Below, piece by piece: positions 8,931 to 52,643 of a DNA stretch of 62,478 nucleotides (positions are counted from its first letter, which is position 1; every line of letters starts with the position of its first letter). Under the pieces are notes generated by a model. It worked only from the letters and a program-made list of their open reading frames with translations, did not search any database and was not told the origin of the DNA. Where the stretch lies: positions 1-62,478 of the forward strand of contig DASYTD010000139.1 in NCBI GenBank assembly GCA_036002655.1, written 5' to 3'. A program made the position numbers and the translations under genes. Source of the stretch: Gemmatimonadales bacterium. GTDB lineage: Bacteria; Gemmatimonadota; Gemmatimonadetes; Gemmatimonadales; GWC2-71-9.

Positions 8931-9842
8931 CTACCGGTTGAGGGTCGCCCGCGCCGCCTGGCGGTCGCGCTCGAGCTGCGCCACCAGCGCTTCGCGGGAC
9001 GGGAACGCCTGCACCGCGCGCAGGCGACGGACCCATTCCACGTCGACGGTCTTTCCGTACAGCTCGCCGTCGAAATCAAATAAATGCACTTCGAGTGTCC
9101 GCGCCTGCTCGCCGAACGTCGGCCGCGGCCCTTGGTTCATCATGCCGCCGTAGCGTTGCCCGTTTCCCGTTTCCGGTTTCCCGATGGTCACGCGCACCGC
9201 ATACACCCCGTCGGGCGGCAACAGTTTCCGGTCATCGGGCGGCTCCAGATTGATCGTCGGGACACCGATCGTCCGACCCCGACCCGCGCCCCGCACCACC
9301 GTGCCGCGGATCCCATAGGGGCGTCCCAACCACCGGGCCGCCGCATCGAGATCTCCGTGCGCCAACGCGGTGCGGATGAGCGTCGACGAGATCGGTTGTC
9401 CGTTCTGGCGGACCGCGTCCACGACCGCCATCGCAAAGCCCTGTGCCCGCGCCAACCGTTGCACCGAGTCCACATCGCCGGCGCGGCCACGGCCGAACCC
9501 GTGATCATACCCCATCACGAGCTCGCGCATCGCGTACTCATCACGCAGCCGGTGCACGAACGCCTCCGCGTCGAGCTGCGCCACCGCCGGCGTAAACGGC
9601 ATCACCACGAACTGCTCGATGCCCTGCGCCGCAACCAGCTCCCGCTTTTCTTCGGGCAGCGTCAGTAGCTTCGGCGCCGCCGCCGGATTCACTACGACGA
9701 GCGGATGCGGCTCGAACGTGACGAGCACGCTCGTCAACCCGTTCGCCCGCGCGCGCCGCGTCACCTCGGCGAGCACCGCCTGGTGCCCGCGGTGCACGCC
9801 ATCGAACGTACCGCATGTCACGACCGCGCCGGGGGGAGACAT
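8931..9842 (-). CDS. ribF: bifunctional riboflavin kinase / FAD synthetase
   Basis: 303 aa. Contains GTFDGVHRGHQ, and GRPYGIRGTVVRGAGRGRTIGVPTINL in the kinase half. Confidence 0.9.
   Translation of the reverse strand: MSPPGAVVTCGTFDGVHRGHQAVLAEVTRRARANGLTSVLVTFEPHPLVVVNPAAAPKLLTLPEEKRELVAAQGIEQFVVMPFTPAVAQLDAEAFVHRLRDEYAMRELVMGYDHGFGRGRAGDVDSVQRLARAQGFAMAVVDAVRQNGQPISSTLIRTALAHGDLDAAARWLGRPYGIRGTVVRGAGRGRTIGVPTINLEPPDDRKLLPPDGVYAVRVTIGKPETGNGQRYGGMMNQGPRPTFGEQARTLEVHLFDFDGELYGKTVDVEWVRRLRAVQAFPSREALVAQLERDRQAARATLNR
9162..9182. repeat. heptamer array GTTTCCC/GTTTCCG/GTTTCCC (3 units) inside ribF
   Basis: Direct reading. Same unit as the arrays at 47601-47737. Encodes GKPETGN in a RibF loop. 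Confidence 0.8.
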
Positions 9843-10684
9843 TAGGCTTCCGCCACCACCACGCGCGGCTTCAGAAGGTCGCCTACCTGCTCCGCCACGG
9901 CCAGCAGCTCAGCACCCGAAAACAGCGCTATCGGGTATCGGCTATCGGCTACGAGGTCGCTCGTGATCGGGCGACCGTGCACCACGGCGTCCCTCTCCTT
10001 CTTATCTAGCTCGCGGCGCGGCAGATGCGCGACCAGGATCGCCGCATCCTGCAACGCGCCCGGCGTGACCGCTTCGGGCGCGACCGCATCTGCCAGGCGA
10101 AGCGGCCCGACGGCGGTGCGCCGCAATGCCGTCAGATGCGCGCCGCATCCCAGCGCGGCGCCGATATCCCGCGCCAGGGACCGGAGGTACGTCCCGGCGC
10201 TCACCGTCGCCCGGAACTGCAGATCGGGCACGGCCGCCTCGACGATCTCGAGCTCCGAGATTTCGACCCGGCGCGGCTCCGGTGCGACCGCTTCGCCGCG
10301 CCGCGCGCGCCGGTACGCGCGCTCGCCCGCGATCTTCACCGCCGAATACGCCGGCGGCCGCTGCTCGTAACCGCCGCGGAAGCTGCCGATCACGGCGGCG
10401 AGCTGCGCCGGCGTGACGCCGGTCCACGGCGCCGTGGCCACCACCGCTCCGGTGGCGTCGTCCGTGTCGGTCGTGACGCCGAGCCGGATCACCCCTTCGT
10501 ACGACTTGGGCCACTCCGCGGCGAACGGCGCGAGCCGCGTCGCCCGTCCCACGACGAGGACCAGCAGTCCTTTGGCGAACGGATCCAGCGTCCCCAGATG
10601 GCCGACGCGCTGTTCGCCGAGCGCGCGACGGACGATGTCCACGACATCATGGGACGTGGGGCCGGCCGGTTTGGCCACCAACAC
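9842..10684 (-). CDS. truB: tRNA pseudouridine(55) synthase TruB
   Basis: 280 aa. GTG start. Contains KPAGPTSHDVV and GHLGTLDPFAKGLLVL. Confidence 0.9.
   Translation of the reverse strand: MLVAKPAGPTSHDVVDIVRRALGEQRVGHLGTLDPFAKGLLVLVVGRATRLAPFAAEWPKSYEGVIRLGVTTDTDDATGAVVATAPWTGVTPAQLAAVIGSFRGGYEQRPPAYSAVKIAGERAYRRARRGEAVAPEPRRVEISELEIVEAAVPDLQFRATVSAGTYLRSLARDIGAALGCGAHLTALRRTAVGPLRLADAVAPEAVTPGALQDAAILVAHLPRRELDKKERDAVVHGRPITSDLVADSRYPIALFSGAELLAVAEQVGDLLKPRVVVAEA
9908..9952. repeat. ~45-nt repeated element with CTATCGG-type heptamers (copy 1, inside the truB 3' part)
   Basis: ctcagcacccgaaaacagcgctatcgggtatcggctatcggctac. About 84% identical (32/38 by hand alignment) to 14010-14055. Confidence 0.7.
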
Positions 10685-14010: not shown

Positions 14011-14055
14011 TCATTCCTCCGAAAAAACCGCTATCAGCTATCGGCTCTCGGCTAC
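14010..14055. repeat. ~45-nt repeated element with CTATCGG-type heptamers (copy 2; spans the ylxQ stop and the infB RBS)
   Basis: ctcattcctccgaaaaaaccgctatcagctatcggctctcggctac. Paralogous to 9908-9952. Confidence 0.7.
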
Positions 14056-15665: not shown

Positions 15666-15700
15666 TCGGTCCTCGGTCCTCAGTCCTCAGTCATCGGTGC
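15666..15700. repeat. heptamer array TCRGTCC x4-5 (minus-strand GGACYGA) between rimP and nusA
   Basis: tcggtcc tcggtcc tcagtcc tcagtca tcggtgc, starting directly after the nusA start codon. Contains the rimP stop. Confidence 0.85.
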
Positions 15701-16209: not shown

Positions 16210-16988
16210 CCTAGCGGCAGTCCCAGGTACGCCACCATCCGGCCGTCGCGCCCACCGGACGCGCGATGCGAGAAAAACCGGTCGCGTCCTTCCGCGCTAC
16301 ACCACGGCGAGACCGAGACTTCCTCGATCCCGAGTTCCCGCGCTTGCTGCGCGAGCACCGCTCGCAAATCGAGTTGTACCGAACCGGACAAGCCGAAGCG
16401 CACGGCGACTTCAGAACCTACTTCATAACAATTGCCACAAATACCTACGCCGCAATGCATTACGATATCGCTCGCTTTGGCGAAACCGCGCCACTTCAAG
16501 AGCTCGACGCAGCGCCCTAAGACCCCGGCTGCGGTGCCCCGCCACCCCGCGTGCACCAGGGCGATCGCGCCTTTGTGCGGCACGGTGAGATACACCGGAA
16601 TGCAATCGGCGACGGTGACCGTGAGCAAGACGCCGCGATCGCTCGTCGCGTGGCCGTCCATGCCGTCGAGGATGAGCCATCCCTCGGGCAGCGTTTCGTG
16701 CCACTGCACTTCGGTCCCGTGTACCTGGTGCGACAGGACGATCGCCGGGAACCGGGCGCCAAACGCGGCGTGGAATGCCCGCCAGCGGCCGATGACCTGC
16801 CCGACCGGCTCGTCGCTCCAGAGTCCCAGACTCAACGGCCGGGTCGTAATGCCGGCCACCAAACCGTAGCGCTCGGCCCAGTCCGTCAGCTCGAGACGCG
16901 GGACGGCGGCATCGCCGACGGGGACCTCGGAAAGCGTCGGCACGTTGGAACGTGGGAACGATGGAACGGACTGTGACGTACCCTTCAC
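16206..16988 (-). CDS. pgeF: peptidoglycan editing factor PgeF / YfiH (laccase-domain protein)
   Basis: 260 aa. Contains [45 protein letters not shown] and CGNCYEVG. Confidence 0.85.
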
Positions 16989-17028
16989 GTTCTCCCTTTC
17001 CCACTTTCCATCGTTCCATCGTTCCTCT
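16944..17028. repeat. inverted arrays of GGAAC-containing octamers flanking the murA stop / pgeF start
   Basis: Left arm: gttggaac gtgggaac gatggaac (16944-16967). Right arm: gttctccc tttcccac tttccatc gttccatc gttcctct (16989-17028). The right arm is the approximate reverse complement of the left. Confidence 0.75.
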
Positions 17029-37902: not shown

Positions 37903-37939
37903 GCAAAACGCAACGCCCTGGGGAGATCCCCAGGGCGTT
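37903..37939 (-). terminator. intrinsic terminator of groESL
   Basis: 12-bp stem AACGCCCTGGGG (37912-37923) / CCCCAGGGCGTT (37928-37939) with a 4-nt loop. On the minus strand it is followed by GCGUUUUGCG. Confidence 0.6.
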
Positions 37940-37962
37940 GTCCAGCCACGACCCGTCGGCCT

Positions 37963-37986
37963 AGGCGTCTGAGCGTCTAGGCGTCT
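37963..37986. repeat. octamer array AGGCGTCT GAGCGTCT AGGCGTCT
   Basis: Direct reading. Lies 7 nt downstream of the groEL stop. Confidence 0.8.
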
Positions 37987-44100: not shown

Positions 44101-44874
44101 CTAAGATAGCTCGACGTGGCCGTCGCGCACCATCGTGGTGCCGGCGCCCGTGTCCACGAGGAGCGCGCCGTCCGGACAAATCCCGGCGGCGCGGCCCGCG
44201 AGCGGCGCGCGGATCTGGCGCCCCCGCAGCCAATCGCGCCGCGCGAACGCCATGCACTCGAACTCCGTGAGCTGCGCGCCGTGCGCCGCGAGCCGCAGCA
44301 GCGCCGGGATGAGCTGGTCCAGCACGTCGATCCGCCGCACGCTCGGCCGGAGCGCGCGCAATGAGACGGCGCGATCGGCCAGCTCCGGAGGGACGTCGTT
44401 CGCCACGTTGATGCCGATCCCCACGCCCAGCCACTGCAACGCGTCGCCCTGCCAGCGACTCTCGCACAAAACCCCCGCGACCTTACGGTCGTCCACGAGT
44501 ACGTCGTTGGGCCACTTGAGTCCGGCACGCGGACCGGACAGCGCCGTGGGCCGGACGCCGAGCACCGCCTCAACGACGTCAGCCACGACGAGTCCGACTC
44601 GCAGGGACAACACGCCGGGCGCCGGCACCGGTGGCCGCAACAGCGTCCCGAGCCACACGCCCCCAGGCGGGGACCGCCAGGTACGGCCGTCGCGTCCCCG
44701 CCCCGCGGTTTGCTCCTCGGCGAGGACGACCGTCCCGGCGGGCGCTTGCTGCGCGCCGAGGTCGTGAATCGCGTCGAGGCTGGAAGAGAGACTGCGAAAG
44801 ACGCCGCATTGCGGCACACCCCAGCGGCGCGCCAGGACAGCCGCGGGAATCCCGTCGATTTCTAGCCGTGCCAC
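44101..44874 (-). CDS. birA: biotin--[acetyl-CoA-carboxylase] ligase
   Basis: GTG start at 44874. Contains EEQTAGRGRDGRTW and LKWPNDVLV. Confidence 0.85.
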   Translation of the reverse strand: MARLEIDGIPAAVLARRWGVPQCGVFRSLSSSLDAIHDLGAQQAPAGTVVLAEEQTAGRGRDGRTWRSPPGGVWLGTLLRPPVPAPGVLSLRVGLVVADVVEAVLGVRPTALSGPRAGLKWPNDVLVDDRKVAGVLCESRWQGDALQWLGVGIGINVANDVPPELADRAVSLRALRPSVRRIDVLDQLIPALLRLAAHGAQLTEFECMAFARRDWLRGRQIRAPLAGRAAGICPDGALLVDTGAGTTMVRDGHVELS

Positions 44875-45653
44875 AGGGCGTAGGCCAGCGTGAAGAGCCC
44901 GATCGCCACGCAATAGGGCGCGAAGACGTGGAAGCGCCCGCGCCTCAGCATGGCGACGAGAAAGCGAATCGCGAAGACGCCCGCGAGAAACGCGACGAGA
45001 CATCCGACGATGAGCGGCACGGCGCCCACCACGGCGATGTCGGCAGACGCGTGCCGCGCCTCGATGAGTCCGGCTCCCGCGATGAGCGGAATCGCCATCA
45101 AGAAGCTGAAATCCGCCGCGGCCACCGCGCCAAGGCCGACCCAGAGCCCGGACGCGATCGTCATCCCGGAGCGCGACACCCCGGGGAGCGGCGCGAGCGC
45201 CTGCGCCAACCCGATGATCAACGCGCCGCCAGGCGTTGGACGGACCGCGGCATCCGGCGCGGCGCCGCTGGCCCTCGTGGACCAGAGCGCCGCGGCGGTG
45301 ACCAGGAACCCGACTCCTGCTGCCCACAGCGAATTGAACGCGCGACCGATGAGATCCTCGAACAGCAAGCCGACGATGCCGGCTGGGATCATGCCGATCA
45401 GCAACAGACCCGCGTAGCGCAAATCGTCGGGCTGGCGGCCCAGGACCCCGAGGGCCAATTGCCAGAAACGACGGCCATAGACGACGAGAATGGACCCGAG
45501 CGTCGCCACATGCAGCGCGACTTCGACGAACACCCCCGGCGTGCGCACGCCGGCGACGTGTCCGATGACGGCGAGATGTCCGTCACTCGAAACGGGGAGG
45601 AACTCGGTCAAGCCTTGGACGAGACCGAGCAGGATTCCTTGCCAGAGGTTCAT
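44862..45653 (-). CDS. uppP: undecaprenyl-diphosphate phosphatase
   Basis: Start set to MNLWQGILLGLVQGLTEFLPVSSDGHL (ATGA overlap). Also contains PGVSRSGMTI. Confidence 0.9.
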   Translation of the reverse strand: MNLWQGILLGLVQGLTEFLPVSSDGHLAVIGHVAGVRTPGVFVEVALHVATLGSILVVYGRRFWQLALGVLGRQPDDLRYAGLLLIGMIPAGIVGLLFEDLIGRAFNSLWAAGVGFLVTAAALWSTRASGAAPDAAVRPTPGGALIIGLAQALAPLPGVSRSGMTIASGLWVGLGAVAAADFSFLMAIPLIAGAGLIEARHASADIAVVGAVPLIVGCLVAFLAGVFAIRFLVAMLRRGRFHVFAPYCVAIGLFTLAYALWHG

Positions 45654-46471
45654 GCGACCTTTCCCGCGACGAGCGCGATCAGCCCAATCACCATGGCGCT
45701 CTTGAGCAGCGCACTCACCCGGTCCACCTTGCCGAGCAGCAACCACGTCGCCGCGAGCAGCATCGCCATTTGCGCGAGCAGCGCGATCACGAAGTACGCG
45801 CCACCGTAGCCGGCGCTGCGCGGCAACAGCAGGCTCGCCGGCACGAACAACAGCCCGGCACCCGCCGCAATCACGAGTGCCGGCCGCCGGCCCACGGCGA
45901 TCGGTAACGTGCGACGCCCGATCGTTCGGTCACCGGGCTCGTCCTCCACGTCTTTGACGACTTCCCGGACGAAATGCAGCCACGCCGCCAAGGTCCACGG
46001 GACGAGGCCCGCCGCGGGGAGACCGACCGCGAGCGCCCCATAGAACGGCGGCGATCCGGCGACGACGGCGACCGCCAGGTTCCCGATCAACGGACGAGGC
46101 TTGAGGAGCGGCGAGTAGAGGAACATGACGGCAAGGGCGGCAAGGGCGGCAAGGAACTGCCGGCCGCTGACCAGACCGGCGAACACGAGACCGATCAACG
46201 CGCCATCGAAGACAATGAAATCGGCGACTCCGCGCCGGATCAGTCCCGCGGCGAGCGGCCGCGCTCCGGGCCGATTTACCCGGTCGGCCGCGACGTCACG
46301 GATGTCGTTCCAGGTGTTGCCCACGGCACCGAGCGCCATTCCGGAGAGTGCGGCGAACACCAACTCCTTGGGAAACCCGATGCGGCCGAGGGCGATCCAT
46401 CCTCCGGCCAAGACGCCCGCGGCAGCAATCAGGAGGTTGGGACCACGAATCAGCCGCAGGACGGGAAGCAC
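45650..46471 (-). CDS. UbiA family prenyltransferase
   Basis: 273 aa, polytopic. Contains NTWNDIRDVAADRVNRP. Confidence 0.75.
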   Translation of the reverse strand: MLPVLRLIRGPNLLIAAAGVLAGGWIALGRIGFPKELVFAALSGMALGAVGNTWNDIRDVAADRVNRPGARPLAAGLIRRGVADFIVFDGALIGLVFAGLVSGRQFLAALAALAVMFLYSPLLKPRPLIGNLAVAVVAGSPPFYGALAVGLPAAGLVPWTLAAWLHFVREVVKDVEDEPGDRTIGRRTLPIAVGRRPALVIAAGAGLLFVPASLLLPRSAGYGGAYFVIALLAQMAMLLAATWLLLGKVDRVSALLKSAMVIGLIALVAGKVA

Positions 46472-47598
46472 TATCCCAGAACCTCTTCATACAATGCTTC
46501 ATAGCGCGGCACCACGCGATCGGCGGAGAACTCGAGCGCTCGCGCGGCCGCGTTGCGCTGCATCCGCTCGTGCTCCGCGGAGTCCTCGAGCAAGCGCAGC
46601 GCACGCTCGGCCATCGTCGCGACGTCACCGGCCGGCGCCAGAAATCCGGTCTTGCCATCCTCGACCACTTCGGGAATCCCGCCCGCGGCGCTCGCGATGA
46701 CGGGAACCGCACAGGCCATCGCCTCGAGCGCCGCGAGCCCGAACGATTCGGTGGCCGAGGGCAGCAGGAACAGGTCCGCCCCGCGCAGCACGTCACCGAC
46801 GCTCTCCACCTTGCCGAGAAAGCGCACATCCTTCCGCAGACCGAGGCCGTCCACCTCGTGCTCGGCGGCATCGCGCTCTGGACCGTCGCCCACCAGCACT
46901 AGCGTCGCCGGAATTTTCTTGCGCACGCCGGCGAAGATTTTGACGACGTCGCCGATGCGTTTGACCGGTCGGAAGTTCGACACATGCACGAGGATGCGGT
47001 GGCCCTTTGGCGCGAGCCGCTTGCGGAACGCGTCGTCGCTGGGGGGATGATAGTCGGCCGTGGAGATGAAGTTCGGAATGACACGCACGTCACAGTGGCC
47101 GCAACCGAACGCGCGATATGTCTCGTCGCGGAGGTAGGCCGACACGGCGGTGACCTTGTCGGACTGTTCGATGGAGAACTTTGTCAGCGTGTAGTACGAC
47201 GGATCCTGACCAACCAGCGTGATGTCCGTGCCGTGCAGCGTCGTGACGATCTTCATGGACAGGTTCTCATGCTCGAGCATCTGCTTCGCGAGCCACGCCG
47301 TCGCGGCGTGCGGGATCGCATAGTGCACGTGCATCAGATCCAATTGTTCGCGTTTCGCGACTTCGTGTTGTTTGACCGCGAGCGCCAGTGCGTACGGGGA
47401 TGACTGCTCGAAGAGCGGATACTCGAACTGGGTCACTTCGTGGAACGTGACCCGCTCGGCAAAGCCCCGCAGGCGAAACGGGCTGGCGTAGGAAATGAAA
47501 TGGACCTCGTGGCCGCGTCGAGCGAGCTCGAGGCCAAGCTCGGTCGCGACGGCACCCGACCCACCATAGGTGGGATAACACGTGATTCCAATTCTCAT
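46471..47598 (-). CDS. bshA: GT4 glycosyltransferase, BshA-type (N-acetyl-alpha-D-glucosaminyl L-malate synthase)
   Basis: Start set to MRIGITCYPTYGGSGAVATELGLELARRGHEVHFI. Also contains HVHYAIPHA, TTLHGTDIT and a C-terminal ESFGLAALEAMA. Closely matches my memory of Bacillus BshA. Confidence 0.75.
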   Translation of the reverse strand: MRIGITCYPTYGGSGAVATELGLELARRGHEVHFISYASPFRLRGFAERVTFHEVTQFEYPLFEQSSPYALALAVKQHEVAKREQLDLMHVHYAIPHAATAWLAKQMLEHENLSMKIVTTLHGTDITLVGQDPSYYTLTKFSIEQSDKVTAVSAYLRDETYRAFGCGHCDVRVIPNFISTADYHPPSDDAFRKRLAPKGHRILVHVSNFRPVKRIGDVVKIFAGVRKKIPATLVLVGDGPERDAAEHEVDGLGLRKDVRFLGKVESVGDVLRGADLFLLPSATESFGLAALEAMACAVPVIASAAGGIPEVVEDGKTGFLAPAGDVATMAERALRLLEDSAEHERMQRNAAARALEFSADRVVPRYEALYEEVLG

Positions 47599-48638
47599 TC
47601 GGGAAACGGGACACGGGAAACGGGAAACGGAAAAGCGCGCCAACGCTCCAGGATCCGTTGCGCAAGGGCTTCAGGCGGTTCAGTCGCGTCCAGAGTCCAC
47701 ACGTTTCCCGTTTCCCGTTTCTCGTTTCCCGTTTTGAGTTGGTTTCGGAACCACGTGTCCTGGCGTTTCGCGTAGCGGCGCGTCGACACCAGAATCGCAT
47801 CGCGCAACGCGGGCTCGGGCAGCTGGCCTCGCAACATGCTCACAACCTCCCGGTAACCGACCCCATCGAGTCCCGGCGCATCGGGCGCGACGCCCGCCGC
47901 GAGCACGCGCTGGACCTCCTCCACGAAGCCGGCAGTGAGCATCGCTTCCACGCGCGCAGCGAGCCGGCGGTGCAACACCTCGCGCGGCACGGTGAGGTGA
48001 ATGTACCAGGGGCGCATCGTGCCGCTTGCGCGCGCTTCCTGCTGCCACCACGAGAGCGCGTGCCCCGTCAGCAACGCGACCTCGACCGCCCGGGCCGCGC
48101 GCTGACGCCCGCCGCCGGGAAAGCGCGGGTCGAGCCGGCCTGCCCAGCGAGCGAGATCGCCTCCTTCCAGCGACTCGGACCAGGCGCGCAGCTGCTCGCG
48201 GCGCTCCGGATCGAACGGTGGCTCGCGAAACAATCCCTCTGCCAGGGCGCGGATATACAGCCCGGTCCCCCCGACGACAATCGGCTGACGCTGCGCCGCG
48301 CGCGTATCGGCAATCCATCCCGCCGCATCGCGTGCGAACCGTCCTGCGCTGTAACGCTCGCCGGGATCGACCAGATCCAGTCCGCGGTGCGGCACGCGCG
48401 CCAGCGTCTCGGGATCGGGTTTGGCGGTGCCGACATCGAGGCCGCGATACACTTGTCGCGCGTCCGCAGAAATCACGGTGATGGGCGTGAGCGCGGCGAG
48501 CGCGACGGCGGTGGCCGTCTTGCCAACGCCCGTGGGGCCTACAATGACAGGTGTCAGGTGCCTGGCGTCAGGTGCGCCCGAAGCGACGCTCAAGCTCTTC
48601 CTTTGGGAGCTGCACCATGCTCGGACGGCCGTGGACAT
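47595..48638 (-). CDS. miaA: tRNA dimethylallyltransferase
   Basis: P-loop VIVGPTGVGKTATA, ARQVYRGLDVGTAKP and YAKRQDTWFRN. Start uncertain: ATG 48638 overlaps mutL by 71 nt, and TTG 48593 is an alternative. Confidence 0.85.
   Translation of the reverse strand: MSTAVRAWCSSQRKSLSVASGAPDARHLTPVIVGPTGVGKTATAVALAALTPITVISADARQVYRGLDVGTAKPDPETLARVPHRGLDLVDPGERYSAGRFARDAAGWIADTRAAQRQPIVVGGTGLYIRALAEGLFREPPFDPERREQLRAWSESLEGGDLARWAGRLDPRFPGGGRQRAARAVEVALLTGHALSWWQQEARASGTMRPWYIHLTVPREVLHRRLAARVEAMLTAGFVEEVQRVLAAGVAPDAPGLDGVGYREVVSMLRGQLPEPALRDAILVSTRRYAKRQDTWFRNQLKTGNEKRETGNVWTLDATEPPEALAQRILERWRAFPFPVSRVPFPE
47601..47737. repeat. inverted pair of GGGAAAC heptamer arrays (5 + 5 units) around the miaA 3' end
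   Basis: Left arm 47601-47635: gggaaac gggacac gggaaac gggaaac ggaaaag. Right arm 47703-47737: gtttccc gtttccc gtttctc gtttccc gttttga. 47601-47628 matches the reverse complement of 47703-47730 at 26/28 positions. Confidence 0.9.
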
Positions 48639-50262
48639 CGTGCGCGGGAAGCGTCGCCGTGAGCAGTCGCACAACCAATTCGCGCATTTCGCCCGCATCG
48701 AGGGTCTGCCCAGCCTTGATGGCCGCGCGACATGCGTAGGTCGCGGCAAACCGTTCCAGCCGGTTCTGCCACCCGCCAAAGCGGCCGCCCGCGAGATCGG
48801 CGACGAGCTCTTGGAGACAGCGCGCCGCTTCGAACCGGGGGTGTGGGTTCGGGGCGGTGTGCACCACGATGCTCCGGCCGGAGAACGGCTCAATCTCGAA
48901 CCCGATGCGGCCGAGCAGCTCGCGATGGGCTTCGATTGCATCGAGCTCTGCCGGCGTGAAGTCGAGAGTGAGGGGAAGCAGCAGCCGTTGGGCGGGGGCG
49001 CCATCGCCCGAGAGCTGGCGCAACACGTCCTCGTACAACACGCGCTCGTGCGCCGAGTGCTGATCCACGATCGCGACGCCGTTATCCGTCTGAAACAGGA
49101 TGTATGTGTCGAAGACTTGAAGCAGAGGCGGGCCTTGGGCCTGGGGATTAGGGCCTAGGGCGGTGGCGGGAAAGAGACTGAGCGGCACACTCATCCCACT
49201 CCAATTCTCCCCAGGCCCCAGCCCCCAGGCCCCAGGCCCACTTCCCAGCGGAGCGGCGGCGGCAAGGGGCGCCAGCGCCTCCCGTACCGCCTCCTCTACC
49301 ACCTTCTCGACGAAAAACTTGTCGCGGAATCGCGCTTCGAGCTTCGCGGGGTGGACGTTCACGTCCACGGCGTCGCTGGGAAGCTCGAGGAACAACAACA
49401 GCGACGGCCGGTCGCCGGGAGCGATCGTCGACCGGTAGCCGGCTTCGGCCGCCCGCAGGATGAACGGATCGCGAATCGGACGGCCGCGCACGAATACATA
49501 GCCCTTGCGTCCCGCGGGACGCGCCTGCGCGGGGCGCTGCACGAGGCCCGTGACCTCGAGCGGGCCCGCGCGGTGCGTGACCGCCAACAGCGTGTCGGCG
49601 AGCTCGATCCCCCACAGCGCGCGCACGCGGTCGATCAAGCGTGCCGCCGGCGGACAGTCGAGCAACGCACGCCCATCACTCGTCAGAGAGAACGCGACGT
49701 CGGGCCGCGTGAGGGCGAGCACCGTGAGTGCCTCCACGGCCGCGCGCGTCTCGGTGGCCGTGGCGCGCAGGAATTTCCGGCGGGCCGGTGTGTTGTAGAA
49801 CAGCCCGCGGACGGTGACGGTGGTGCCGCGCTGGCGGACCGTGTCTTCCACACCGTCCGATTTGCCGCCGGTCACCCGCAGGCGCGTTGCCTCGGCGCCG
49901 TCGCCCGATGTTTCGAGCTCGAAGCGGGAGACGGACGCAATCGCCGGGAGCGCCTCGCCGCGAAATCCGAACGTCGCGACTCCGATGAGATCGGTGACTG
50001 TGCGAATCTTACTGGTGGCGTGGCGCAGTAACGCGAGGCGGGCGTCTTCGGCGTCCATGCCCGCGCCGTCATCGCTCACGCGAATCAGCGTCTTGCCGCC
50101 GTCCTCCAGCTCCACGCGTACGGCGTGCGCGCCGGCATCGAGTGCGTTCTCGACGAGCTCTTTCACGACCGCCGCTGGCCGCTCGACGACTTCGCCGGCG
50201 GCGATCTGATCGGCCACGTTTCCCGCGAGAATCTGAACGCGGGGGCGCGCGAGCACACTCAC
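48568..50262 (-). CDS. mutL: DNA mismatch repair protein MutL
   Basis: GTG start at 50262 (GTGA overlap). Contains NVADQIAAGEVVERPAAVVKELVENALDAG and the C-terminal dimerisation domain DQHSAHERVLYE. Confidence 0.9.
   Translation of the reverse strand: MSVLARPRVQILAGNVADQIAAGEVVERPAAVVKELVENALDAGAHAVRVELEDGGKTLIRVSDDGAGMDAEDARLALLRHATSKIRTVTDLIGVATFGFRGEALPAIASVSRFELETSGDGAEATRLRVTGGKSDGVEDTVRQRGTTVTVRGLFYNTPARRKFLRATATETRAAVEALTVLALTRPDVAFSLTSDGRALLDCPPAARLIDRVRALWGIELADTLLAVTHRAGPLEVTGLVQRPAQARPAGRKGYVFVRGRPIRDPFILRAAEAGYRSTIAPGDRPSLLLFLELPSDAVDVNVHPAKLEARFRDKFFVEKVVEEAVREALAPLAAAAPLGSGPGAWGLGPGENWSGMSVPLSLFPATALGPNPQAQGPPLLQVFDTYILFQTDNGVAIVDQHSAHERVLYEDVLRQLSGDGAPAQRLLLPLTLDFTPAELDAIEAHRELLGRIGFEIEPFSGRSIVVHTAPNPHPRFEAARCLQELVADLAGGRFGGWQNRLERFAATYACRAAIKAGQTLDAGEMRELVVRLLTATLPAHDVHGRPSMVQLPKEELERRFGRT
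49131..49250. repeat. inverted pair of CCTGGGG/CCCCAGG heptamer arrays inside the mutL linker
   Basis: Left arm: ccttggg cctgggg attaggg cctaggg (49133-49160). Right arm: ccccagg ccccagc ccccagg ccccagg (49209-49236), plus degenerate units to 49250. Confidence 0.85.
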
Positions 50263-52643
50263 AATCCGGCGATCTCCGCTCCCAGGACCCAGCCGTGGAT
50301 TCCATCTTTGCGGTGCACTTCCCGCCACGGACCATAACTGCGGCCGGCGAGCAGCGCACCACCCGCCGGAATCGTGGCCGCCGCGCTCGCACCCCCATAG
50401 GGCGCGGCCCGTACGGGCGCCGTCTGCGCGATCACCACGACCAGTGGCCGATCGCGCCGCCGCCATTCGATTCCTCCCAGGATCGCTGAACCGACGACGA
50501 CCGCGCCGAGCAGCACGATCACCACACGCCGCCGGACCCCCAGCGCAATCGCGAGCCACAGCACCACCCATCCGGCGGCACCGATGATCGCCCACTCGGC
50601 CGGTGTGCCCACGCCCACGCGCAACAGCTGTTCGCTCACGGGATCGGGAGGAGGCAGCAGGCGCAACGCCCGCCGGATGGCCGCATCACGCGGCGCCAGG
50701 CGTGCCGCCCGCGTCCAGGCGGCCGTCGCTTTGCCATCAGCGCCGGCCCGGTACAGCGTGGCGCCGAGATTGTACCAGTTGGCGGGATCGCGTGGGTCGC
50801 GGGCGGCGCGCGCCGCGTAGGAATCGGCAGCGGCGCGCAACGCACCCGCTTCGAACAGCGCCTCAGCGCTCGGGGTCTGGGCCTGCGGCGGCGTTTGGGA
50901 TTGCAGGGTCGCAGCAGGCTGCGCCCCTACCAGTGCGAGCAGCACGAGCGACGTGAGGATTGGACGGCGACGGGAGGCGGTGTGCCCCTCCGCGCCCAGC
51001 ACGCGCAGCACCTGCTCGATTTCCGCCGCGAGCTCGGCAGCATCACCCAAGCCCCGTGGCCCATAGCGCGCCGCACGCAGCCGGTCACGCAAGCGCTTCA
51101 CATGGTCCGCCACAGCGCTGTCCACACCCGCCGCCCGCAACGCCTGGGCCAGTCCGTCGCCGTCGCGGGCGAACGGATCGGACACGTGGCTCGCGAGCAC
51201 GGCGAGAAACTCCCGCTCGAGACGCCCCAGTGGCGTGAGCTCAGGACCTCCCCCCGCCGGCGCCGGTTCCGGCGCGGCCGCACCACGCCGGCGCCGTCTC
51301 GCCACCCAGGCGATCAGGGGAGGCGCGAGCAGGATGGCGAGCCACCCCTCCCATCCGACGCGCCGGCTCAGGCGATCAGCCTCGAGCTCTCCCTGGCGCG
51401 CGAGCAGCGGCGGCAGCACGCGCGCTGCGCGCGGCTCGGCGCCAGGTGCGACCGCGAGCGCGCGCGGTCCCGTCGTCCCCACCTCATAGCGGCCTGCCGT
51501 TGGATCGAAGTACGGATAGCGCACTTCCGGTAGGACGAAGTTTCCGGACGAATCGGGCACGGCGAGGAACTGAAACGTCTTGCTACCGGCGATGCGCCCG
51601 GCGTCCGTCGCGACACGCACCTCTGTTTGCGCGGGATACACGCGAAATCCCGTCGGCCATTTCAACACCGGCTCAGGCCACAACGCCACGTTACCCACGC
51701 CGCCGATCGTGACCGACGCCTCCACGGGCTCGCCGACACGAGTCGTCGCGGGATCGACGTGGAGATCGAGACGCAATCCCTGTCCGACCACCGCGGTCCC
51801 AGAATTGGCCGGCGGAAGCGGCAAGACGGTGATCGCAATCGAGTCGCTGCGCAGCGCGTAGCGCTCTTCCCGGCTGAAAAACGAGAACGTGACCGGGAGC
51901 GCGTACTCGACCGAGGCGGGCGGAATGATCAGTCGCCCGGGTATGAGTGGAAACACGACCTGATGCGTGATGAACAAATCCATCCACCGGCCGCTCACCT
52001 GACGCGAGAGCGCAACGCCCGACGACGTCGCGGCGGGATACGCCCACACGCCTTCCGGGGTGACGAGCGTGAGCAGCGGCTGCCGCCGCATCCGTTCCTT
52101 GAGCTCGCGCGGGATCCAGGCGGCAGCGATCACGTCCACCTGTTGTCCGGCGAAGACCGTATCGCTCGGCACCAGCATCGTCAGCGCCACCCGATCGGTG
52201 CGGCGTGAGGCGGGTGCAGGGGCGCTCTCGAGCAACGACCGCGCCAGCGGGCTCAAGGCGATCGCCATGCGGTCCGCCGCACTATCCACGGTCACGAGGA
52301 TCGGATCGGTCGAAACGACGCTCACTCCCTGACGTGCCCGCACGGGACCGATCAGCAGCGCCCCCGCCTGCTGGGCCCGCAACTGGAGCTCGCGAACGGT
52401 CGTGCGGATCGAGCTGGTGCCCCCGCTGATCGCGACCTCCGTCATGTCGCGCGAGCCCACGATCGCGAAGCCGTTCAGCGACGGCAGCATGATCTCCACG
52501 GGGTCCGCCGTGCGCGTGCGCGCGCGCACCGTCAACGTCAGCTGCTCGCCGACCCTGAGGTGCGTGCGATCCACGCCGGCGGTAACCTCGGCGCCGCCTT
52601 GGAGGGCGAGGATGGCCGCGACGAGCGACAGCGCGGGGCTCAC
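50259..52643 (-). CDS. BatD-like protein fused to a BatE-like TPR + SH3b region
   Basis: 794 aa. The N-terminal BatD-type repeats are called on resemblance only (VDRTHLRVGEQLTLTV). Also has a TM region, a TPR-like segment and a C-terminal SH3b-like GPWREVHRKDGIHGWV. Confidence 0.7.
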   Translation of the reverse strand: MSPALSLVAAILALQGGAEVTAGVDRTHLRVGEQLTLTVRARTRTADPVEIMLPSLNGFAIVGSRDMTEVAISGGTSSIRTTVRELQLRAQQAGALLIGPVRARQGVSVVSTDPILVTVDSAADRMAIALSPLARSLLESAPAPASRRTDRVALTMLVPSDTVFAGQQVDVIAAAWIPRELKERMRRQPLLTLVTPEGVWAYPAATSSGVALSRQVSGRWMDLFITHQVVFPLIPGRLIIPPASVEYALPVTFSFFSREERYALRSDSIAITVLPLPPANSGTAVVGQGLRLDLHVDPATTRVGEPVEASVTIGGVGNVALWPEPVLKWPTGFRVYPAQTEVRVATDAGRIAGSKTFQFLAVPDSSGNFVLPEVRYPYFDPTAGRYEVGTTGPRALAVAPGAEPRAARVLPPLLARQGELEADRLSRRVGWEGWLAILLAPPLIAWVARRRRRGAAAPEPAPAGGGPELTPLGRLEREFLAVLASHVSDPFARDGDGLAQALRAAGVDSAVADHVKRLRDRLRAARYGPRGLGDAAELAAEIEQVLRVLGAEGHTASRRRPILTSLVLLALVGAQPAATLQSQTPPQAQTPSAEALFEAGALRAAADSYAARAARDPRDPANWYNLGATLYRAGADGKATAAWTRAARLAPRDAAIRRALRLLPPPDPVSEQLLRVGVGTPAEWAIIGAAGWVVLWLAIALGVRRRVVIVLLGAVVVGSAILGGIEWRRRDRPLVVVIAQTAPVRAAPYGGASAAATIPAGGALLAGRSYGPWREVHRKDGIHGWVLGAEIAGL

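Follow-up and report, generated by a model that had tools for sequence, protein, structure and literature searches.

How does a gene come to end in a pair of opposed arrays of one seven-nucleotide unit, both of them within its reading frame and the second running up to the start codon of the next gene? The question is raised by the junction of miaA and bshA in a 62,478-nt stretch of DNA from a Gemmatimonadales bacterium (assembly GCA_036002655.1, contig DASYTD010000139.1), the whole of which is called the window below, with all coordinates counted over the whole window on its forward strand. The original prediction, made from the letters of this DNA, had taken the arrays for a foreign palindromic element that was inserted in frame and now defined the miaA stop and the translational coupling of bshA. 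After comparing the junction with its counterparts in related genomes, we regard a different reading as fairly probable, namely that the feature is one copy of a class of palindromic heptamer microsatellites pervading the Gemmatimonadales, a by-product of processes at the DNA level that occupies permissive coding positions. As judged from the aligned loci, the comparison shows that the position of the hairpin is fixed across the order, that its units turn over, and that its arms are lost singly or together; since relatives lack one or both arrays, the hairpin is dispensable.

Two Heptamer Arms at the miaA/bshA Junction

The genes of the junction are read on the minus strand, and the parts to be discussed are the following.

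47702–47737, minus strand: the 5' arm (in the sense of the mRNA), about five GGGAAAC-type units, recognised by Tandem Repeats Finder (TRF), the inverted-repeat search, translation and the predicted local distance difference test (pLDDT) of a structural model

47635–47701, minus strand: the hairpin loop, native miaA coding sequence VWTLDATEPPEALAQRILERWRA, which encodes the last beta-strand and the C-terminal helix of MiaA

47600–47634, minus strand: the 3' arm (in the sense of the mRNA), about five GTTTCCC-type units, recognised by TRF, in the sequence and by pLDDT

47595–47598, minus strand: the ATGA overlap, with the bshA ATG at 47598–47596 and the miaA TGA at 47597–47595

47595–48593, minus strand: miaA, tRNA dimethylallyltransferase (TIGR00174, 200.7 bits; Pfam IPPT)

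46471–47598, minus strand: bshA, N-acetylglucosaminyl L-malate synthase of the bacillithiol pathway (TIGR03999, 536 bits)

The opposed arrays of about five units each were confirmed by TRF, which reported one period-7 array at 47600–47634 (CGGGAAA, 5.0 copies, 89% matches) and another at 47702–47734 (CGTTTCC, 4.7 copies, 92% matches). Their layout is convergent, with GGGAAAC on the plus strand at 47601–47635 and on the minus strand at 47737–47703. The inverted-repeat search paired 30 nt of each arm (47600–47629 with 47702–47731) at 93% complementarity, or 28 of 30 positions, with the arms 72 nt apart, which leaves the predicted pairing of 26/28 positions around a 74-nt loop essentially right. 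The 156-nt sense RNA from 47590 to 47745 is predicted to fold at −69.4 kcal/mol, compared with −46.7 ± 3.8 kcal/mol for shuffled sequences (z −5.9; 0 of 200 shuffles as good), and the potential stem of the original prediction is thereby matched by a stable predicted structure.

At its C-terminus, miaA translates as RNQLKTGNEKRETGNVWTLDATEPPEALAQRILERWRAFPFPVSRVPFPE followed by the stop. Within this sequence the 5' arm supplies the in-frame peptide KTGNEKRETGN, between the MiaA helix that ends in TWFRNQL and the strand VWTLD, while the 3' arm supplies, also in frame, the FPFPVSRVPFPE tail and stops 1–2 nt short of the bshA ATG. Since the unit length of 7 does not divide by 3, successive units are translated in different frames until all three have been used, and the peptide repeats after seven residues. 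On the plus strand the 3' arm reads GGGAAACGGGACACGGGAAACGGG and holds four G3 tracts, by which it matches a G-quadruplex motif on sequence alone; the 5' arm in mRNA sense has three G3 tracts only (GGG, GAG, GGG, GGG). The initiation region of bshA is located at the base of the stem, and the TIGR03999 alignment of BshA covers positions 1–374 of 375, from residue 1. Further upstream, the miaA start is probably the TTG at 48593, which overlaps the end of mutL, and on an identical contig from the Joint Genome Institute (JGI) the miaA gene call is 332 amino acids long. No Shine-Dalgarno-like sequence was seen by eye upstream of bshA in the window, and a search for promoters at the locus found none that fits. 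A terminator scan returned nothing terminator-like at the arms, the 3' arm running directly into the bshA ATG, and the only match in an Rfam scan was a plant microRNA precursor, a generic long hairpin, at 21.7 bits where 100 are needed.

The Same Site in Related Genomes

Relatives were obtained by a scan of species-representative genomes, which yielded 80 loci, all from metagenome-assembled genomes of Gemmatimonadales/Gemmatimonadota, with MiaA 63–83% identical. In each locus the sequence beginning at RNQL and reaching to the start of bshA was extracted, giving 79 analysable sequences, and a stem was called at a score of at least 12. The anchors VW.LDA and RW stand exactly 60 nt apart in all 79. 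A stem is found at the same two positions in 63 of them; its median length is 28 aligned bp (17–36), and the fold energies of the whole junction range from −51 to −96 kcal/mol. From the paired 3' arm to the bshA ATG the median distance is 6 nt, and it is within 13 nt in 59 of the 63. The median complementarity score of the arms is 15.5 within a locus, whereas 5' and 3' arms taken from different loci score 5.0 and shuffled sequences 5.6.

The units themselves differ by species. The window has GGGAAAC, and GGGAGCC, GGGAGTT, GGGGACG, GGGATGC, GGGAGAC and CCGTCAG are found among its relatives, together with GGTCGTC, GCTATCG, CAGTCGT, CAGGGGT, CAGACGT and others; many relatives have units without G3 tracts. 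Of 57 pairs, 45 have a G-rich 5' arm and 10 a C-rich one, and a strict rule that the G-rich arm always comes first was rejected on these counts.

Stemless relatives (16 of 79) comprise nine without a detectable period-7 array on either side, four with a 3' array only (for example L001, L016 and L023) and three with a 5' array only (for example L020). Three of the nine arrayless loci, L018, L034 and L026, have no extra sequence whatever, and in one clade of six members the 5' arm is present in none and a 3' array in two. The armless L018 and L034 read RNQL-RDAS-VWTLDATE...ERWRS-stop with the ATGA overlap present, and this stop/start overlap occurs in 33 of the 79 relatives, armless ones included. 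Because ATGA is also found in armless relatives, the overlap is ancestral, with the 3' arm a later addition ahead of it, so the idea that the arms had created the miaA stop and the overlap with the bshA start has to be given up. The MiaA proteins of E. coli and P. aeruginosa align only as far as TWFRN, beyond which the E. coli chain continues for 28 residues versus 48 here. The arms were predicted to be in frame and specific to a lineage, and this holds: they are absent from these distant proteins and from L018 and L034. On this comparison of sequences the arms are additions, and the loop and the stop/start overlap are ancestral.

A Nucleic-Acid Feature Rather than a Protein Feature

The peptides encoded by the arms have nothing in common between species. 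The miaA stop falls within the 3' arm in about 40 relatives; where the 5' unit is one whose complement holds TGA or TAG, translation of MiaA ends within the 3' arm (QMADG-stop, MTDNR-stop) and the remainder of the arm, at most 48 nt, is non-coding. Because stops occur inside 3' arms and the rest is untranslated, the repeat is not present for its peptide. A function of the repeat at the protein level was considered and rejected, the peptides being wholly different between species and half of the 3' arms untranslated.

An AlphaFold2 model of MiaA (26 sequences, mean pLDDT 81.6) separates the arms from the loop. The strand at residues 283–287 and the helix at 292–305, both encoded by the loop, are modelled confidently, with 10-residue blocks averaging pLDDT 84–95, in agreement with the earlier view that the loop encodes a normal MiaA C-terminus. 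The arm peptides, residues 274–280 and 309–317, lie below pLDDT 50 and are predicted to be disordered.

Probable Exchange of Whole Modules between Lineages

On a tree of the MiaA core, genomes with unrelated units stand as neighbours (L003/L008, L022/L027, L017/L020, L032/L039, L056/L068 and L047/L055). L003 and L008 are 96–98% identical over most of 7 kb and 62–64% identical in two 100-nt windows over the module. Their alignment breaks from the codon after RNQL to the bshA ATG; within the module the identity is 53%, and over the adjoining 50–120 nt it is 82–91%. Ten further close pairs have the same sharp divergent block. Similar modules are found in more distant genomes, with 79% module identity between L008 and L039 and 81% between L003 and L025, pairs whose flanks are only 70–81% identical. 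As far as alignments can tell, the L003/L008 pattern is one of allele replacement, in which old module types recombine by homology over short tracts. The alternative that in-situ hypermutation alone produced this divergence was rejected, since each of the two modules has a counterpart elsewhere that is about 80% identical. Because same-type modules are only about 80% alike, the module alleles are old and not freshly written.

A different course is plausible for L047 and L055, in which the units differ by two substitutions that have been copied through all units, with flanks 93–96% identical and a loop at 67%; here the divergence of the arms may be a concerted change in place, or in-situ hypermutation. 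In the same close pairs the hairpin of the mutL linker forms a second divergence valley.

A separate observation concerns positions ~6000–6700 of L003 and L008 (roughly window 44850–45550), where a block of about 600 nt is 54–60% identical, identity elsewhere being 96–98%, and holds no tandem repeats. This repeat-free hypervariable block lies near the start of a BacA-like gene, two genes downstream of bshA, the first being UbiA-like. Because a repeat-free valley of this kind exists, divergence valleys are not exclusive to hairpins.

A Wider Class of Heptamer Arrays

The census of arrays covered 593 kb, made up of the window and the 80 related loci of about 7 kb each. With a minimum of 2.8 copies, 190 arrays were counted at period 7, versus 30, 24 and 45 at periods 6, 8 and 9, and inverted pairs were detected for 97 of 217 period-7 arrays, with loops of 7–113 nt. 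The window alone has seven period-7 arrays of three or more copies, compared with 0.1 in shuffled sequence, and at least six different heptamer units. Over the loci the arrays cluster at the end of miaA (48 and 38 loci for the two arms), in the interdomain linker of mutL (about 40) and at the mutL/miaA junction (24). Neighbouring hairpins of one genome share their unit in 5 of 32 cases, which is above chance (permutation p 0.002). Two further features of the window are needed here.

48568–50595, minus strand: mutL

9154–9183, minus strand: a solitary GGGAAAC-type array of 4.3 copies in ribF, recognised by TRF, a pattern search and the RibF alignment

The two-unit GGGAAAC pattern GGGAAACGGGAAAC has 10 matches in the window when at most two mismatches are allowed, where 0.26 would be expected. 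The recurrence of the unit in ribF that had been reported is real, with three of these matches at 9155–9182. This copy is in frame (GKPETGNGQR) and belongs to a variable loop at the surface that is flanked by gaps in the alignment to RibF of C. ammoniagenes; no inverted partner lies near the array.

Other repeats in the window are recorded here as observations in their own right. An inverted heptamer pair at 49130–49161 and 49209–49239, GGGCCTR-type units facing CCCCAGG around a loop of about 47 nt, lies in frame in the interdomain linker of MutL, a site that carries heptamer arrays in about 40 relatives, with differing units and with 18 detected as inverted pairs. Where mutL meets miaA, a CACCTGA/CAGGTGT-type heptamer array at 48548–48574 extends across the mutL stop and the first miaA codons, and arrays or other palindromes stand at this junction in 24 relatives. 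Two GCTATCG arrays (9927–9951 and 14030–14054) are 4 kb apart, one in a truB-like open reading frame (ORF) upstream of ribF and the other between a ylxR-like ORF and infB; in other species (for example L054, L010 and L031) the same unit builds miaA or mutL hairpins. The rimP/nusA junction is filled by a solitary heptamer array at 15666–15698, GGACYGA on the gene strand, which provides both the rimP stop (APMTED-stop) and repeated GAGGA motifs resembling Shine-Dalgarno sequences right before the nusA ATG. Octamers occur as well: inverted arrays at 16942–16968 and 17006–17025, GGAACGNN facing CGTTCCAT with a loop of about 37 nt, extend over the murA stop and over the start of the following gene, which overlaps it, one arm encoding the tail of MurA and the other the N-terminus of the next protein, the product of a 260-residue ORF that we take to be putatively YfiH/PgeF-like. 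Finally, an octamer array of CTAGGCGT-like units at 37961–37986 directly follows the groEL stop, and after it comes a separate GC-rich hairpin at about 37915–37945.

Reproducibility in Public Metagenomes

In four soil-metagenome runs (Logan), contigs over 47600–47729 had zero differences from the window, and of three JGI assemblies with the module, two are identical and one carries a single substitution; the arrays were thus reproduced in all seven public data sets. Unit number did not vary across the four Logan runs and the three JGI contigs, which is weak evidence, because contigs hide rare variants. The lack of such variation in seven data sets implies that the arrays are stable over short times. 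A search for RNA runs that contain the region returned none.

Over window positions 47597–47731, the k-mer depth of the arms in runs X1–X4 is 16–42 times that of the flanks. The sampled soils are very rich in GGGAAAC/GTTTCCC arrays, which fragment assemblies, and contigs of public assemblies break at them. Joints in the metagenomes place GGGAAAC arms around the short loops TAAAA and TGGTGCATTTT and around a 20-nt spacer, with depths that follow the window genome in two runs, and a GGGAAAC joint with a 30-nt spacer has a depth matching the window genome in X1. Because the depths of these joints match, the genome of the window probably holds several (at least four) more GGGAAAC hairpins.

How the Hairpin May Arise and Persist

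We propose that a pair of short, oppositely oriented arrays of a single 7-nt unit may have settled where alone, around the miaA/bshA junction, extra sequence would be tolerated, namely in the surface loop before the last beta-strand of MiaA and in its C-terminal tail. The arrays would lengthen and shorten by replication slippage, and the two arms would be homogenised by exchange between them, for example through intrastrand template switching, given that the hairpin has several possible pairing registers. Whole arm-loop-arm modules would be swapped between lineages by short-tract homologous recombination. Selection would only remove versions that break the frame, and the 5' arm would have to be free of stops in all three frames. 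As consequences of this process, MiaA would gain two disordered segments, and in the mRNA some 30 bp could pair into a stem that has its base 1–2 nt from the bshA AUG and would bury the preceding 30 nt; bshA would then be read mainly by ribosomes that terminate miaA at AUGA, which amounts to translational coupling.

Two tests bear on whether the stem is shaped as RNA or as DNA. If a sense-RNA stem is selected, G-U mismatches should exceed A-C mismatches, and the 63 stems, with 1706 aligned pairs, hold 52 G-U, 66 A-C and 113 other mismatches (binomial p 0.23), a comparison of related sequences that is not decisive. In the mirror-copy test, in-register pairing is 87.1%, versus 83.9% after the order of the units is shuffled, and this gap comes partly from the choice of the best alignment; because shuffling the unit order costs little pairing, most of the complementarity comes from the unit that the arms share. 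A strand-symmetric process at the DNA level is favoured by these results, which leave room for a role of the RNA.

Several points weigh against the proposal that the hairpin is a DNA-level by-product. The site is occupied across a clade of the rank of an order, with MiaA identity down to 63%, and the stems are of narrow length, so selection for the structure is possible. That Watson-Crick pairing stays at about 87% while the units turn over calls for active homogenisation or for selection. Slippage and template switching are steps that we infer, and the arrays did not vary in the seven data sets. In addition, the by-product reading does not explain the period of 7.

Alternative Explanations

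It is possible, though in our judgement unlikely, that the hairpin is a selected RNA element, in which a stem of the miaA-bshA mRNA masks bshA initiation and makes the coupling strict, or serves as a site of RNase III processing or of stability that separates the cistrons. The strong predicted fold (z −5.9), the short distance from the stem's end to the bshA ATG (no more than 13 nt in 59 of 63 relatives) and the lack, by eye, of a Shine-Dalgarno-like sequence before bshA in the window are all consistent with such an element, and a site kept across the order while its sequence changes resembles covariation. A stem of about 28 bp is also long enough for RNase III and would suffice as its substrate. 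However, G-U mismatches are not in excess over A-C and half of the mismatches are transversions, the hairpin is missing from whole clades, and Rfam gave no match. The same repeat class also occurs in the mutL linker of about 40 loci, far from start codons; because these arrays sit far from any start codon, coupling cannot be the purpose of the class.

We would give a similarly low chance to the view that the arm-loop-arm modules are distinct hairpin cassettes, set at fixed positions in and between housekeeping genes. They would be kept either by a dedicated process that the hairpin templates or that targets it, or by selection, for instance as sites of obligate coupling or of RNase III action, and species would exchange them as discrete alleles whose breakpoints lie at the edges of the arms.

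A selected DNA element appears improbable. It would be a cruciform or G-quadruplex palindrome acting as a recombination hot spot, a protein-binding site or a replication or supercoiling signal, and it might also be written by a dedicated process templated by the hairpin. Divergence blocks do match module edges in 11 close genome pairs, and the repeat-free divergence valleys of the same loci (for example about 600 nt at +2200) tell against this reading. In its favour are the polarity bias (5' arm G-rich in 45 of 57 pairs, C-rich in 10) and the four G3 tracts in the plus-strand arm, which would suit a G-quadruplex such as related Xanthomonas oligonucleotides form in vitro (PMC4692102), but many units have no G tracts. 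A strand-symmetric mismatch spectrum and the reuse of one unit at two sites per genome (5 of 32, permutation p 0.002) also point to DNA, whereas same-type modules are only about 80% alike and the mirrored order of units contributes only about 3 points of complementarity.

The original idea of a foreign mobile palindrome inserted in frame, such as a transposable element of the miniature inverted-repeat kind (MITE) or a relative of the repetitive extragenic palindromes (REP) and their hairpin doublets (REPIN), is highly improbable, and at the miaA/bshA locus it is refuted by the comparative data. Its appeal lay in the palindromic shape, in the return of the GGGAAAC unit in ribF and in the metagenome depth of the arms at 16–42 times that of the flanks. 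Yet the interior proves to be miaA's own conserved coding sequence, always with 60 nt between the anchors; the arms are simple tandem arrays whose unit depends on the species at one and the same site; they occur singly; and there is neither a fixed terminal sequence nor a target duplication. Chance similarity or an artefact of assembly is hardly conceivable, even for an uncultured soil bacterium whose public contigs break at arrays, given the shuffle statistics for pattern, fold and array counts, the unchanged arrays of the four Logan runs and of two among the JGI assemblies (the third being one base off), and the same architecture in 62 other genomes.

Relation to Known Repeat Systems

The nearest published parallel comes from Xanthomonas, where GGGAATC repeats occur in convergent orientation. 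Rehm et al. 2015 (PLoS One, PMC4692102) described GGGAATC heptamers in Xanthomonas campestris and X. axonopodis, with about four units preferred and with 70–75 convergent pairs per genome that are capable of forming stem-loops and lie at, or overlap, the stop of the upstream ORF. Their positions are 83% conserved between the two species and they have no known function; essentially one unit is used genome-wide, and 89–93% are intergenic (PMC4692102). The arrays studied here resemble them in the 7-nt unit, GGGAAAC being one base from GGGAATC, in the inverted pairing, in the placement at stop codons and in having about four or more copies. They differ from them in that, over the window and the related loci, the units vary by locus and species, both arms are translated within the miaA frame, a conserved coding loop of 60 nt is enclosed, and the module behaves like an exchangeable allele. 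In Nostoc and Anabaena, the short tandemly repeated repetitive (STRR) sequence GGGGA(C/T)T is tandem and dispersed, with 32% intragenic in Anabaena and few inverted pairs in Nostoc (PMC4692102). The likeness to these cyanobacterial repeats lies in the dispersed tandem heptamers with a sizeable intragenic share, and the differences lie in the phylum, the units and the scarcity of pairs in Nostoc.

An intrinsic terminator has a GC-rich stem, a short loop and a U tract, and the junction does not offer this combination. Coupling by a masking stem, as between coat and replicase of the RNA phage MS2 and at many operon junctions, is closer, because there too the downstream start is buried, and AUGA is likewise found here; the difference is that at the miaA/bshA junction coupling would be a consequence only and not the purpose of the repeat class. 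REP and REPIN sequences, which are mobilised by REP-associated tyrosine transposases (RAYT), are short extragenic palindromes, often arranged as spaced inverted doublets at gene ends, and they can stabilise mRNA or bind proteins. They form a family of fixed sequence that is copied around the genome, whereas the arms described here are locus-specific arrays around native sequence. A MITE or REPIN is known by one and the same element, interior included, at many loci and by fixed terminal repeats, and neither was found here.

Significance for the Gemmatimonadales

The miaA/bshA site is a good test case for the whole class, with its fixed position, its constant 60-nt loop, dozens of natural stem variants and armless controls. 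If one of the functional readings is true, the hairpins would be a widespread and unrecognised way in which Gemmatimonadales couple or process cistrons, or mark the boundaries of recombination. If, on the other hand, palindromic heptamer microsatellites are a DNA-level by-product, as we favour, then a simple-sequence process can write disordered segments into essential enzymes, MiaA, MutL, RibF and MurA among them, and can reshape operon junctions across a whole bacterial order. Such a process would bear on the annotation of genes, on assembly, in which contigs break at the arrays, and on the evolution of protein linkers and tails.

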